From IMG/VR virus record IMGVR_UViG_2687453188_000002: DNA of 47,998 nt. One strand, 5' to 3'. The notes under the pieces were generated by a model. It saw only the letters and a program-made list of their open reading frames with translations, ran no database searches and had not been told where the DNA came from. Shown one piece after another: positions 13,013-17,019 of this stretch. This DNA comes from a virus (Duplodnaviria > Heunggongvirae > Uroviricota > Caudoviricetes). Within the stretch, counting starts at the first letter, position 1; every line of letters starts with the position of its first letter. Position numbers and translations under genes: made by a program.

Positions 13013-13109
13013 TATCCTTGATAACTATTAAAAATCGCAGTAAGTTCATCCTGCATCAACGAAAAGGGAGTGCAGTCCCGCTCGTGGATAAAAATTTGTG
13101 GAGAAACCA

Positions 13110-13925
13110 ATGAATCAGTTGCTTGTAATTGATGGCGTTTCTGTGCGCCAGTACTTCGAATCTAACTACTGTCTTAACGACCTTCAGAAAGCTGCTCTTC
13201 TTGCCGCTGGTGAGAATCGCTCCTCCCGTTCGCTGGAAGTTCACGAGTTTATGCGTCGTCCTGAAACGAAGGCTCTTGTGGAATTATTGGAAGAAGAAAC
13301 TACGGGAGATTCCCGTAGTATTCCTGTCATCACCATTCAGGGGCGCAATGGTGGGACGTATGTCTGTAAAGAGCTGGTCTATGCATATGCAATGTGGATC
13401 AGCCCGGCATTCAGCTTAAAAGTGATACGTACTTTTGATGCGCTTCATAATTCATCACCAGAAGAAACCACATCCGACAAAATTAAATCCGGGGTCATTC
13501 TGCTTGAATCAGCAGCAAAGACTCTAAATCTGTCAAACTCCTCGAAACTTGGTGCATACCAGAAATTATCAAAGGTAGCTGGTCTTCCTGAACTTATGCC
13601 GATCTATGCCATTGATGCACCTGCTGATGCGCCAGATGGTTCAAGCCGCCCTACGCTGTCGCTGAGTGCACTGCTGAAGCAGTATGGTATCCGCCTGACG
13701 GCTAATCAGGCATATCACCAGATGGTGAAGCTGGGGATCGTCGAGCAGCGCGAACGATACAGCCGTACCGCGATTAACAACATCAAAAAATTCTGGTCGC
13801 TGACAGCGAAAGGCTGCATGTTCGGCAAGAACATCACCAGTCCCGCAAATCCGCGCGAGACGCAGCCGCATTTCTTCGAATCCCGATTCCCTGAGCTGTT
13901 AAAGCTGCTCGATACCGTTCATTGA
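13110..13925 (+). CDS. KilA-N domain protein (antirepressor-like)
   Basis: ATG at 13110 behind a GGAG Shine-Dalgarno. N-terminal region (IQGRNGGTYVCKELVYAYAMWISPAFSLKVIRTFDAL) resembles the KilA-N DNA-binding domain. Confidence 0.55.
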   Translation: MNQLLVIDGVSVRQYFESNYCLNDLQKAALLAAGENRSSRSLEVHEFMRRPETKALVELLEEETTGDSRSIPVITIQGRNGGTYVCKELVYAYAMWISPAFSLKVIRTFDALHNSSPEETTSDKIKSGVILLESAAKTLNLSNSSKLGAYQKLSKVAGLPELMPIYAIDAPADAPDGSSRPTLSLSALLKQYGIRLTANQAYHQMVKLGIVEQRERYSRTAINNIKKFWSLTAKGCMFGKNITSPANPRETQPHFFESRFPELLKLLDTVH

Positions 13926-13926
13926 G

Positions 13927-14922
13927 GTGACCGTGAGAGCACTACTGACCCCTGAAATTGCCCCGCGTATGGGGATCGTATTGTTCAGACCAGGTTCAGA
14001 GCTGATGCCCTTGTTTATGCAGGGGCGTGTCTTGCTGGAGCCTGAGCCGGAACGTTATTCATCTTTCGCCAGTGGTGCCGTTCCGGCGGCATCACAACCG
14101 CTGGCGGATGATCCTGCCGTTCGGGCCGTGTTCCGTAATGAGGCAGTGATCCGTCGTGCTGGTGGCGTGGAATGTCTTGAAAGCTGGTTACTTCGTGAAA
14201 AAGGCTGCCAGTGGCCTCATTCCGACTGGCACAGCGAGAACATGACAACAATGCGACACGCTCCGGGCGCAATCCGTTTGTGCTGGCACTGCGATAACCA
14301 GCTGCGCGATCAGTTCACGGAACGGCTGGAATCAATGGCAACGGATAACAGTGCCCGCTGGGTGTTGTCTGTTGTGCGTCGGGATCTCGGTTTTGATGAC
14401 AGTCATGTTGTGACAATGCCGGAACTGTGCTGGTGGCTGATTCGTAATGATCTGGCGGATGCCTTACCGGAAAGTGCAGCCCGTAAGGCACTGAGATTAC
14501 CGAAGCCTGTTGTGCCGTCTGTTACCCGGGAAAGTGACCTTGTGCCTTCGGTTCCTGCCACCAGCATCATCCAGGATAAGGCGAAAAAGGTGCTGGCGCT
14601 GAAAGTGGATCCGGAGTCGCCGGAGTCTTTTATGTTACGCCCCAAACGTCGCCGCTGGGTTAATGAAAAGTACACGCGCTGGGTTAAGACGCAGCCGTGC
14701 GCATGTTGTGGAAAACCTGCTGATGATCCCCACCACCTGATAGGTCACGGTCAGGGTGGAATGGCTACAAAAGCGCATGACCTCTTTGTGTTGCCTTTGT
14801 GCAGAAAGCATCACGACGAGCTGCATGCGGATACCGTGGCATTTGAAGAGAAGTATGGCTCCCAGCTGGAGCTGATATTTCGTTTTATCGATCGTGCACT
14901 GGCAATTGGCGTGCTGGCCTGA
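13927..14922 (+). CDS. DUF968-like prophage protein with C-terminal Cys/His cluster
   Basis: 331-aa ORF. C-terminus (CACCGKPADDPHHLIGHGQGGMATKAHDLFVLPLCRKHHDELH) is like DUF968 proteins of E. coli prophages. Start codon uncertain (GTG at 13927 or a downstream ATG). Confidence 0.5.
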   Translation: MTVRALLTPEIAPRMGIVLFRPGSELMPLFMQGRVLLEPEPERYSSFASGAVPAASQPLADDPAVRAVFRNEAVIRRAGGVECLESWLLREKGCQWPHSDWHSENMTTMRHAPGAIRLCWHCDNQLRDQFTERLESMATDNSARWVLSVVRRDLGFDDSHVVTMPELCWWLIRNDLADALPESAARKALRLPKPVVPSVTRESDLVPSVPATSIIQDKAKKVLALKVDPESPESFMLRPKRRRWVNEKYTRWVKTQPCACCGKPADDPHHLIGHGQGGMATKAHDLFVLPLCRKHHDELHADTVAFEEKYGSQLELIFRFIDRALAIGVLA

Positions 14923-14936
14923 TTTTGTGGAGAAAG

Positions 14937-15281
14937 TTGATGCGTGATATGTATGAAGTATTGGACCGCTGGGGTGCATGGGCTGCAGCAGATAACAGTG
15001 GTGTGGACTGGCAGCCTGTTGCTGCAGGGTTTAAAGGTTTACTACCTCATGGAAAGAAAACACGCCAACAATGCGATGATGATGAAGGAATCATGATTGA
15101 CAGCTGTGTTGCGCGATTGCGGAAATATAAGCCCGAAGAGTATGAGTTGGTTATTGCTCATTTTGTTATCGGCATCTCACTAAGAACTATTGCAAAGAAG
15201 CAGAAGTGTTCTGATGGGACAATAAGAAAAGAGTTGCAAACAGCTCTTGGTTTTCTGGATGGTGTGCTTTCAATGTTGTAA
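14937..15281 (+). CDS. Late-gene antiterminator Q (small QuuD-type)
   Basis: 114 aa from ATG at 14937 behind a GGAG Shine-Dalgarno. Pattern RWGAWAA ... AAGFKGL ... CDDDE ... CSDGTIRKEL resembles the DLP12 QuuD-type family as I recall it. Confidence 0.65.
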   Translation: MMRDMYEVLDRWGAWAAADNSGVDWQPVAAGFKGLLPHGKKTRQQCDDDEGIMIDSCVARLRKYKPEEYELVIAHFVIGISLRTIAKKQKCSDGTIRKELQTALGFLDGVLSML

Positions 15282-15293
15282 TATTAGGGGGAA

Positions 15294-15842
15294 TTACCCC
15301 CCTTTTTTTCTCTGTTGCTTTAATAAAATTTTAATATTTTGTCTGATTATGATGAGGCAATGTAATAAAAGAAATACCGTTAGTATTGCAAGCCATACGC
15401 AAAATAAGCATGCATATAAATTAGTTGAAAGTCCAATAGTGAATTGTGCAATTGCTGTTGTGATAGAACATAATATTGATGTATTAATAAATGAGGATAA
15501 ATTGTCTAAAGGTTTATAAAGTACACTATCATTGATTTTGTCAATAGGTATACCAGTGGCAATGCTATAAATTTCCTTATATTCCTGAGTTGCAAAAACC
15601 TTATCGCGTAAATTTATTATAACAAAGGTATGCAGGCTCAATAAAAATGAGCCCACGGAAATAAAACCGGAGAAGAGATAGCCTCGTAAGTTTTTATGAT
15701 AAAAATCAAAAAAGTTAACACTTACTTTAGGTGTGTTTCTGTACAATAGGTAAAGTGCAAGCAATGCCAGGATCGAGAATGCAAGCAGTGTAAGGTACTG
15801 ATACCTCAATCTTTTATTTATTAGCCATTCATATAAAGGCAT
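15294..15842 (-). CDS. Hypothetical multi-pass membrane protein, second gene of AT-rich cassette
   Basis: 182 aa with about four hydrophobic helices (YLTLLAFSILALLALYLLY; LFSGFISVGSFLLSLHTFVIINL; ILCSITTAIAQFTIGL; LYACLFCVWLAILTVFLLLHCLIII). Its ATG (15840-15842) lies 11 nt before the upstream gene's TGA, a 14-nt overlap. Confidence 0.6.
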   Translation of the reverse strand: MPLYEWLINKRLRYQYLTLLAFSILALLALYLLYRNTPKVSVNFFDFYHKNLRGYLFSGFISVGSFLLSLHTFVIINLRDKVFATQEYKEIYSIATGIPIDKINDSVLYKPLDNLSSFINTSILCSITTAIAQFTIGLSTNLYACLFCVWLAILTVFLLLHCLIIIRQNIKILLKQQRKKGG

Positions 15843-16755
15843 TTTTATTCGTCCCGTTCAGCATTTCTTCTTTTATCATATCAAAAACAGGGTTTGTTGT
15901 ATAATTATCGTTTGTCAATCCATTGACTTTATCGGCAATTATATCGAAATCGTATGTTTCAAAAAAAACAGGGCAGTTCATAAAATCAATGGTTTTTTCT
16001 ATTCCTGCATGGTTTACTGCAATAACCTGTGCTTTAGCAACTCCACTCATAGAATTATAAATATTTGAAAGATTCTGAGATAGTTGTTGCACTTTTGTTC
16101 TGTCGCTAGAATTAAAATTCATATCTATTGTGGTGGTGTTAACAAATTGTTCAAGCGCAGTCATTGGTCCACCTTTAAAATCTATATAATTAAATTTAAA
16201 GCTTGTGCTTTTAATCTCTTTGAATTGACATAAAACACTCTGAATGTTGTTTTTATTTGTCATAAGGCTGAAAGTCAGTCTTTCTTTGTATTTTTTATTT
16301 ATTGCAGTTACTTCTTTTTGTTTTGGTTTATCACCAAGTTTTTTTATTTCTTCTTTATTTTGATTTCTGATAAATTCATTACTTATTGTTTCTAAATGAG
16401 AAAAGAGAGTGTTCAGACTGCATGAACCGTGGTGATACATATAGAGACCAGAAAGATTAGATTTTTTAATTAAGAAAAAGTTGAAATTAGCAAGTTTGTC
16501 ACTTCCTTGAAGATCTTCAATTTTAAGCTGGAATTTACCATCAACAAATTGCGACTTACAGTTCTTTTTTTGGTTTCTGAATGTGACAACTAATCCATAA
16601 TAGAAATCATTCACATCCGAAATGAGAATTTTACGAGTATAGTCTGTGCGACTGTGTTCTCTGTTTGATGCGTTGATAAAAGCATTCATTACGTCAACGG
16701 TATTAATATTTTTGTTATTGTTATTTATTGTAAATCCTATGCTTCTAACTTTCAT
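15829..16755 (-). CDS. Hypothetical Asn-rich soluble protein, first gene of AT-rich two-gene cassette
   Basis: 308-aa ORF, ATG at 16753-16755. Strongly AT-rich and Asn/Lys-rich codon usage unlike the surrounding phage genes. No Walker, HD or other motif recognised. Confidence 0.6.
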   Translation of the reverse strand: MKVRSIGFTINNNNKNINTVDVMNAFINASNREHSRTDYTRKILISDVNDFYYGLVVTFRNQKKNCKSQFVDGKFQLKIEDLQGSDKLANFNFFLIKKSNLSGLYMYHHGSCSLNTLFSHLETISNEFIRNQNKEEIKKLGDKPKQKEVTAINKKYKERLTFSLMTNKNNIQSVLCQFKEIKSTSFKFNYIDFKGGPMTALEQFVNTTTIDMNFNSSDRTKVQQLSQNLSNIYNSMSGVAKAQVIAVNHAGIEKTIDFMNCPVFFETYDFDIIADKVNGLTNDNYTTNPVFDMIKEEMLNGTNKNAFI

Positions 16756-16880
16756 GTGTATTCCAGGACCGACTAAAGATAGCGAGAATGGGGACGCATA
16801 GTTTATAAAAATCCTAACGCGTACGCAAAAAGTATTATATCGTGTTAAGAGTGGTTACTTCGCCACACAACTTAAACCCG

Positions 16881-16898
16881 CCGCTGAGCGGTTTTTTT
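16881..16898 (+). terminator. Possible short intrinsic terminator (candidate tR'-like element)
   Basis: ccgc-tga-gcgg hairpin followed by 7 T, between the AT-rich cassette and the downstream plus-strand genes. Short stem, weak. Confidence 0.3.
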
Positions 16899-17019
16899 GT
16901 ACCTGTAAACCTTGTGCAGTACAGTAAACACGCTGGTGGTCGTGAATACTGGCTTTTTATCTTGCTGGCTTTTTAGACAAGAGTTATTGGTATGTCATGT
17001 TAACCAGAAGGGAAAAGAC

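Follow-up and report, generated by a model that had tools for sequence, protein, structure and literature searches.

Antiterminators of the Pfam family PF06530 have been named the Q21/Q933W family and carry a DNA-binding motif that resembles region 4 of sigma factors (Yin et al.). In phage 21 (6P18, 6JNX; OL657228), which encodes a Q protein of this family, a consensus -35 element, TTGACA, follows Q within 7 bp, the promoter spacer holds a Q-binding element (QBE) made of two 8-bp direct repeats, the pause element TAAGCT lies at +2 and a terminator is found about 50 nt after the start. In the Stx2 phage 933W, the Q frame runs into the annotated promoter pR' (TTTACG-N16-TATCAT), with its stop codon between the -35 and the -10, and a qut site and a terminator are annotated as well. 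The corresponding PR' of Sakai Sp5 is constitutive and is the source of the small RNA StxS, with a start mapped by differential RNA sequencing (dRNA-seq) and a 3' end mapped by Term-seq 258 nt downstream (Sy et al., PMC7547250). In the K-12 prophage DLP12, quuD, the leftward cargo gene nmpC, a variant of the PR' block and essD follow one another, and the lysis cassette is reported, as far as the account in PMC7918800 goes, to be under a DLP12 Q-like factor (Rueggeberg 2013). Here we compare these systems with a locus in a 47,998-nucleotide stretch of tailed-phage DNA (Caudoviricetes; IMG/VR record IMGVR_UViG_2687453188_000002), hereafter the window, in which Q is separated by a convergent gene cassette from the non-coding region 16756-17019. 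Our analysis indicates that positions 16814-16898 of this region are probably the Q-dependent late control module, promoter PR' with terminator tR', lying beyond a slot for exchangeable cargo; the leftward promoter of the cargo and a Rex-like defence role of the cassette are judged separately below.

The part of the locus on which the argument turns is arranged as follows:

14940-15281, plus strand: Q antiterminator, short form of 113 amino acids (Pfam PF06530)
15294-16755, minus strand: cassette of two overlapping genes
16756-17019, no strand: non-coding gap

The original prediction held that the cassette begins 12 bp after the end of Q at 15281, that 16756-17019 is the first non-coding stretch on the plus strand, and, as one of two alternatives, that the cassette came to lie between Q and its qut/PR' site. 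The coordinates are all confirmed: the Q stop codon TAA occupies 15279-15281 and the minus-strand stop codon of the membrane-protein gene 15294-15296, with a gap of 12 bp (15282-15293) between them, and 16756-17019 is the first stretch that lacks a credible gene, its open reading frames (ORFs) being spurious, before the next real gene opens with ATG at 17020. The displacement of PR' is likewise supported, by homology to 933W and by 173 related loci, with the qualification that it is not a one-off insertion; the slot is found family-wide and is always occupied.

The module itself comprises five elements:

16814-16819, plus strand: -35-like hexamer of PR', CTAACG
16815-16831, plus strand: invariant 17-mer TAACGCGTACGCAAAAA, probable Q-binding element, from its conservation, its position and its change with Q type
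16838-16843, plus strand: -10 hexamer of PR', TATCGT
16844-16879, plus strand: predicted start A16850 and conserved early transcribed region GTTAAGAGTGGTTACTTCGCCAC, by homology
16880-16898, plus strand: tR', hairpin GCCGC-TGA-GCGGT (16880-16892) with a T-run to 16898, from a terminator scan; leader of about 49 nt

Conservation was assessed in 80 viral contigs retrieved through their Q protein and in about 120 more retrieved through the pattern TAACGCGTACGCAAAAA-N12-GTTAAG. Wherever a locus of the Q-anchored set extends far enough, the block is present downstream of Q, and the comparison with phages carrying a related Q finds the 16814-16898 block downstream of Q in all 173 loci that hold both. 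This block of about 85 bp is kept in every related locus regardless of both of its neighbours. In an alignment with SfII and Stx2a_1447, which carry a related Q followed by two-gene convergent cassettes that differ from and are not homologous to that of the window, a conserved block with sharp bounds (window about 16806-16898) appears beyond the cassettes; in SfII it is directly followed by the holin gene S. It is because of this conservation, and not of single-sequence signals, that the region rises above chance.

The conserved positions are those expected of a late promoter. The hexamer at 16838-16843 reads TAnnnT in each of 98 unique variants, in 11 different sequences. The short hairpin and T-run that had been noted in the region (found at 16880-16898) proved by comparison to be a conserved tR': a hairpin with a U-tract lies at +26 to +41 in 78 of the 98 unique variants, and since it is kept with 56 different hairpin sequences, it has good comparative support as a terminator. 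In 933W, phage 21 and Ayreon, the annotation calls the counterpart of this element a terminator.

Homology points in the same direction. The module aligns with the annotated pR', qut and terminator of 933W, from the -35 through TAAGAGTGGTTAC.T..GCCAC to the hairpin CCCGCC...GCGGG and its T-run, and window 16844-16879, a strongly conserved early transcribed region, is near-identical to TAAGAGTGGTTACATTGCCAC of 933W/Sp5. When coordinates are transferred, the Sp5 start falls on the A of TAAGAG, corresponding to A16850 of the window, and the Sp5 3' end falls on the last T of the T-run of a second terminator. The -10 of the window is accordingly placed at TATCGT and +1 near 16850, because the conservation of this hexamer agrees with the 933W annotation and with the Sp5 start. 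The two loci differ in that the 933W region begins inside the 3' end of Q, whereas the window Q is 31 amino acids shorter at its C-terminus and 1.5 kb of cargo intervenes; the spacer is 16 bp in 933W and 18 bp in the window, and its motif is TTTACGATCGTAAAAAT in the former and TAACGCGTACGCAAAAA in the latter.

The Q protein of the window matches PF06530 over its full length (E=2e-45) and the PDB entries 6P18 and 6JNX of Q21 (E=3e-4), and is 45% identical to both 933W Q and QuuD, matches by which we assign it to the Q21/Q933W family. It also matches weakly to region 4 of extracytoplasmic function (ECF) sigma factors, which fits the sigma-region-4-like motif described by Yin et al. The motif in the promoter spacer follows the type of Q: it is TAACGCGTACGCAAAAA here, TTTACG(A)T(A)CGTAAAAA for 933W and QuuD, whose Q proteins are 78% identical to each other, and ATTGAGCA-AATGAGCA for phage 21. 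Among 37 unique variants collected by way of Q alone, a single C/T change is the only departure from the 17-mer. Because it sits in the promoter spacer where phage 21 has its QBE, and differs from one Q type to another, we take this 17-mer as the probable Q-binding element. By analogy, the early transcribed region 16844-16879 would be the zone in which a qut or sigma-dependent pause element is expected. With phage 21 the module shares a conserved element between the promoter hexamers and a terminator some 50 nt beyond the start; it differs in that Q is 1.5 kb away and the -35 departs from consensus.

Several observations weigh against this assignment. The repeat in the 17-mer (ACGCGT/ACGCAA) has a 6-bp period, in contrast to the two 8-bp subsites of phage 21, and Q binding is argued by position only. 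No hexamer downstream of +1 keeps A2 and T6 of TAnnnT across the variants, and a pause element is not assignable. The -35 is poor (CTAACG) and the spacer is 18 bp long; promoter prediction had been proposed as a check, and a simple sigma-70 scan lists no promoter on the plus strand in 16756-17019, the module being shown by conservation. The tR' stem of the window has only 4-5 bp, and the 51-nt leader has no folding advantage over shuffled sequences (z = -1.4). The mapped Sp5 transcript, at 258 nt, evidently continues past the homologous hairpin, and the hairpin of the window may be leaky too. Contigs in the pattern-anchored half of the survey were selected for the 17-mer and GTTAAG, and the invariance of the two is unbiased only in the Q-anchored half. 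Finally, both start sites at this locus, that of PR' and that of the cargo promoter, are placed by homology or by pattern.

Some further features of the block were recorded. In Sp5/933W (L086, 766-789 vs 976-1003), the hairpin homologous to tR', with its T7, lies at about +27 to +49 and the published transcript runs to the second terminator (+258), so either the first hairpin leaks in vivo or its short product went unrecorded. A pause element by analogy with TAAGCT at +2 of phage 21 was considered and rejected, since the Sp5 start falls inside TAAGAG. A hairpin at the 5' end of the leader (GUGG/CCAC) is paired in 84% of cells, with too few double or compensatory changes to call. A16837 is largely specific to the cargo class of the window and a few others, most variants having G; it creates a perfect minus-strand TATAAT (16834-16839) as well as the plus-strand TATTAT, and no matching -35 is seen.

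To the right, the conservation extends beyond this Q lineage. With phages of other Q types, homology begins only at about 16835-16875 and runs rightward. This pattern places a mosaic boundary at the terminator, between a unit of Q/PR' specificity and a shared late region, as would be expected if Q and its site form one specificity unit. Ayreon (L003, 2492-2530), mEp460, cdtI and Stx2c phages, whose Q is unrelated, are about 94% identical to the window from the tR' hairpin or a few bases before it.

To the left, the block lies at a distance from Q. The 173 loci have Q and the block 597-3742 bp apart and never adjacent; in the window, 1,532 bp lie between the Q stop at 15281 and the -35 at 16814, so that PR' neither adjoins nor overlaps Q. 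A chimeric query joining the 3' end of Q to 16756-17100 was covered to at least 80% in none of 5,426 complete E. coli genomes, and an empty site is also absent among the sampled viral contigs. Since the two are never adjacent and no empty site was found, the separation of Q and PR' appears as a standing, always-occupied feature of this Q lineage and not as an accident of the window prophage.

The DNA in between falls, over the 173 loci, into 35 mutually unrelated classes, almost all leftward, whose G+C content is 0.29-0.43 and whose main ORFs lie on the minus strand. Of the 34 classes other than that of the window, at least 12 match PADLOC families, including:

Locus L092: Kiwa KwaB (E=2e-150)
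Locus L137: NsnA / PD-T4-2_A
Locus L095: HEC-04 / ATPase-Toprim / AriA-like
Loci L087 and L186: PDC-S42, two classes
Locus L178: PDC-S60
Locus L191: PDC-M31A / AbiL-like
Loci L001 (SfII) and L199: PDC-M53A, two classes
Locus L056: PDC-S33 (RelA/SpoT)
Locus L132: MBL-fold, RTasMBL/LmuA-like
Locus L134: capP/RmrA-like peptidase

Three further classes carry homologues of NA37-family nucleoid proteins. Judged by these cargo sequences, the slot behaves as a defence hotspot with conserved flanks; enrichment for defence was judged by count. The closest parallel is provided by the hotspots of P2-like phages and P4-like satellites (Rousset et al. 2022, PMC9122126), which likewise combine conserved flanks with many unrelated low-GC cassettes, a fair share of them known defence systems. 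Those hotspots belong to another phage family and position, whereas here the flanks are the 3' end of a regulatory gene and the target promoter of that same regulator, and the flanking promoter would also supply half of the cargo promoter.

The cassettes of the slot also decay and gain insertion elements: the L053 class (10 loci) resembles a decayed Kiwa, with KwaB-like fragments over short ORFs, and in L126 a transposase-like gene lies beside NA37-type cargo and Q is pushed more than 4 kb away. A common design, a soluble protein of about 270-350 amino acids with a membrane protein of about 145-220, recurs in L001, L002, L004, L028, L092, L096, L106, L148 and L199. It includes Kiwa, PDC-M53 and the Rex-like pair, and suggests a common logic of sensor plus membrane effector, possibly with a distant common fold.

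The left joint of the slot lies at the end of Q. The last 5-7 codons of Q (window 15260-15281 and the equivalents in L001-L199) are specific to the cargo class (DGVLSML, GVVSILV, MLAYSMA and others), so that on this side the recombination joint of the cassettes falls within the reading frame of Q. Between Q933W and QuuD, too, only the C-terminal tails diverge. Directly after Q, a terminator is predicted:

15287-15309, plus strand: hairpin GGGGG-AATTA-CCCCCC (15287-15302) with T7 (15303-15309), predicted terminator from a terminator scan

The 12-bp gap is part of this hairpin, and the stop codon of the membrane-protein gene lies within its loop. A strong hairpin, often bidirectional, directly follows the Q stop in most other cargo classes. 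In the window, the hairpin would stop early rightward transcripts at Q and protect the cassette from being read through in antisense; its minus-strand tail (TAATATTAC) is a poor T-run, and cassette transcripts might therefore continue antisense into Q.

At the right joint, the block appears to serve the cargo as well. A leftward promoter is predicted at its edge:

16800-16828, minus strand: predicted cargo promoter, -35 TTGCGT (reverse complement of 16823-16828), 17-bp spacer and -10 TAAACT (reverse complement of 16800-16805)

Its start would lie at about 16793-16795, that is 38-40 nt ahead of the ATG at 16755. From the invariant TTGCGT, a TAnnnT hexamer is found at 17 bp in 22 classes and at 18 bp in 7 (29 of 35). 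The -10 hexamers vary by class (TAAACT in the window; TAGAAT, TATATT, TAAGAT, TACAAT and TATAAT elsewhere), and from the predicted start to the first cargo ORF the median distance is about 36 nt. On these patterns, we consider it reasonably probable that the block carries the -35 of a leftward sigma-70 promoter for the cargo and that the -10 comes with each cargo. PR' and the predicted cargo promoter would then stand back-to-back with interleaved -35 regions, the leftward -35 lying inside the probable Q site. A likeness to the CII-activated promoter paQ (TTGC-N6-TTGC) was rejected: the second repeat would be GTTA or TTAG.

A competing view of the same pattern is that TTGCGT-N17/18-TAnnnT is no cargo promoter and reflects either an A/T-rich UP element of PR' or common ancestry along the left edge of the block, the cargo promoters lying elsewhere. 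An A-tract at -44 to -40 of PR' fits the position of the proximal UP subsite as known from promoter anatomy, the hexamer is missing from six of the 35 classes, in a few cases the cargo ORF begins only after more than 100 nt, and in DLP12 an AT-rich stretch of about 370 bp lies between nmpC and the block. However, the hexamers differ in sequence between classes and yet keep T1, A2 and T6 at a fixed spacing, other spacings from 8 to 31 bp mostly score 0-3 of the 35 classes (the highest, 6, at 22 bp), a UP consensus does not predict AnnnTA on the plus strand at the position of the hexamer, and the median distance from the predicted start to the cargo ORFs is short, at about 36 nt. We regard this view as rather unlikely and keep to a leftward promoter shared between block and cargo.

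DLP12 is a direct precedent for the layout of Q, cargo and PR'. A distance of 120 bp separates its block variant (TTTACGTACGTAAAAAA...GTTAAGAGTGGTTACTTCGTCAC...hairpin) from essD downstream. It differs from the window in its spacer motif, which is of the 933W type, in the AT-rich stretch mentioned above and in its cargo, the porin gene nmpC interrupted by IS5 instead of a defence pair. The lc porin of phage PA-2 is a parallel to the nmpC cargo in the older literature. The spacer motif of DLP12 (L206, 4198-4214) is a perfect 14-bp palindrome, TTTACGTACGTAAA, so that a -35-like TTTACG points outward on either strand; a GATATT hexamer is found 17 bp to its left.

The cargo of the window itself consists of two genes that overlap by 14 nt:

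15829-16755, minus strand: first cassette gene, 308-amino-acid protein of RexA/RdgC fold (AlphaFold2 and Foldseek)
15294-15842, minus strand: second cassette gene, 182-amino-acid polytopic membrane protein with 3-4 hydrophobic segments, candidate RexB-like partner

The cassette is an island of composition, with a G+C content of 0.28-0.33 against 0.50-0.56 in its flanks. The homologues of the 308-amino-acid protein are all hypothetical proteins of Enterobacterales. Its AlphaFold2 model, built with 23 homologues, has a predicted local distance difference test score (pLDDT) of 75, Foldseek ranks RexA (E=9.5e-5) and RdgC (2e-4) first, and the RexA fold match was obtained by two methods. As in lambda RexAB, a cytoplasmic protein of about 300 amino acids with the RexA/RdgC fold is followed, in the same gene order and in a lambdoid prophage, by a small polytopic membrane protein. 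The lambda pair, in contrast, lies in the immunity region and is co-transcribed with cI, whereas that of the window lies between Q and PR' and has no detectable sequence similarity to it; the membrane partner has 182 amino acids in the window and 144 in lambda. Against a Rex kinship stand a profile of the 23 homologues, which finds no RexA among PDB sequences even at E<=10, and the level of the likeness, which is that of the fold, at 7-11% identity. By gene order, sizes and modelled fold, the cassette would thus be a RexAB-like pair, a membership not established by sequence, and a Rex-like defence function is about an even prospect.

It has also to be considered whether the cassette is a passive moron without a defence role, for instance with a lysogenic-conversion or membrane function like nmpC/lc, in which case its position would carry no regulatory meaning. 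Neither protein matches Pfam or PADLOC, PHROGs returns only an unnamed family, and in DLP12 the equivalent slot is classically occupied by a porin gene. The fold of the larger protein nonetheless matches that of the sensor protein of lambda Rex exclusion, a membrane partner is present in the order rexA-rexB, and among the 35 alternative cargos there are at least 12 with matches to known or candidate defence families. A passive moron seems to us a rather unlikely account, and we continue with the RexAB-like pair.

For the late promoter itself, the original prediction had singled out a -10-like TATTAT at about 16833. The hexamer is indeed there (16833-16838), and taken as the -10 it would put the start near 16845 and make TAAGAG(T) at 16846 a pause element comparable to TAAGCT in phage 21. 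TATTAT is nearer to consensus than TATCGT, AAGnnT at 16847-16852 keeps A and T in nearly all listed variants, and the annotated pause element of phage 21, TAAGCTG, follows the start by one base and the QBE by 13 bp, compared with 14 bp from the 17-mer to TAAGAG in the window. This placement is improbable, however: TAnnnT is kept at 16833-16838 in only 81 of the 98 variants, with forms such as TGCCAT, TTCAGT and CACCGT, while the hexamer five bases to the right fits all 98, and the dRNA-seq start of Sp5, together with its mapped 3' end (258 nt), puts +1 on the A of TAAGAG, which fits the downstream hexamer as the -10. TATCGT is thus retained.

The other proposal made at the outset, that late transcripts start inside the cassette and run antisense through it, here widened to a start directly after Q and to 16756-17019 as only a downstream terminator or processing region, can draw on the weak plus-strand promoter-like sites that consensus scans list in the cassette (15556-15583, 15958-15986 and 16583-16610) and is nevertheless very improbable, given that promoter-like sites in the region number 10 against 8.8 +/- 2.8 in shuffles, that the 12-bp gap after Q belongs to a predicted plus-strand terminator, that the 35 cargo classes share no sequence and none can therefore carry a conserved Q-specific site, that the only element travelling with Q is the block downstream of the cargo, that this block is homologous to the PR' of 933W/Sp5 with its mapped start, and that it occurs once, no second copy of block or motif being found in the window. 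An inverse coupling of cassette and late genes, which that proposal implied, may be possible only through promoter overlap or convergent early transcription.

With the module at 16814-16898 as PR'/tR', the following model can be proposed. In the absence of Q, polymerase would make the leader of about 49 nt and stop at tR'. Q, diffusing from its gene 1.5 kb upstream, would load onto polymerase paused in the conserved early transcribed segment, and transcription would read on into the methylase, tRNA, esterase, lysis and structural genes. With Q and PR' apart, the interval from the last Q codons to PR' would form a slot for exchangeable leftward cargo, each cargo being self-contained, with a terminator beside Q and its own -10 that would use the -35 (TTGCGT, minus strand) inside the PR' block. 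The RexAB-like pair of the window would presumably be expressed in the lysogen to exclude other phages. More tentatively, we raise the possibility of a two-way switch common to all cargos, in which Q, accumulating after induction, would turn on the late genes and shut off the defence cassette of the slot; as part of the same doubtful proposal, the 3' end of Q and the block would serve as fixed recombination arms for swapping defence cassettes.

The remaining features of the region are the following:

13098-13925, plus strand: 275-amino-acid ORF, KilA-type gene per the SfII and Stx2a_1447 annotations
13927-14922, plus strand: DUF968/HNH gene
17020-17223, plus strand: small ORF of 67 amino acids, PHROG 331, start ATG at 17020
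17375-18424, plus strand: N6/N4 DNA methyltransferase (Pfam PF01555)
18474-18725, plus strand: three tRNAs, Met-CAT, Arg-TCG and Arg-TCT
18802-18992, plus strand: STnc100 small RNA (Rfam RF02076, 140 bits)
19216-21069, plus strand: nanS-type esterase (SASA/DUF1737), followed by lysis and structural genes

An Rfam search of 14800-19300 returned only the tRNAs, STnc100 and chance matches, none of them within 16756-17019. The STnc100 match is full-length and lies directly after the tRNAs, where Stx phages carry stx; the window prophage has no toxin genes there. The 67-amino-acid protein of PHROG 331, of unknown function, is encoded by the first ORF beyond PR'/tR'; this ORF has a good ribosome-binding site and precedes the methylase in many phages with the same late region.

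This arrangement is widespread. Window positions 14925-17400 are 100% identical to a prophage of E. coli O104:H4 (the 2011 outbreak lineage) and are present complete at >=99% in 215 of 5,426 complete E. coli genomes. The isolated phages mEp460_4F5 and vB_EcoS-569R4 have the same arrangement, which indicates that the layout is viable.

Cargo between Q and the late genes is in itself classical, as in nmpC of DLP12 or the stx genes downstream of PR'. In the literature searched, which gives no proof of absence, we did not find a description of the slot as a hotspot holding dozens of defence-type cassettes, of a shared divergent promoter embedded in the PR'/Q-site block, or of the Rex-like nature of the window cassette.

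Taken together, our findings suggest that in many prophages of E. coli, Shigella and related bacteria the late promoter should be sought 0.6-3.7 kb beyond Q, past an antisense cassette. The group includes some Stx2a phages (Stx2a_1447, WGPS2), in which the late promoter would lie well away from Q. The slot constitutes a compact and readily recognised hotspot with fixed flanks and, in this regard, a practical place for finding new defence systems; the 173 loci sampled already hold Kiwa, NsnA-type cassettes, OLD/PARIS-like ATPases, Rex-like pairs and about twenty cassettes of unknown type. The overlap of the predicted cargo promoter with the probable Q site offers a testable model for how a prophage may silence its own defence genes when it turns lytic and, if true, the two-way switch would be a cargo-independent way to stop the abortive-infection genes of a prophage from sabotaging its own lytic growth.

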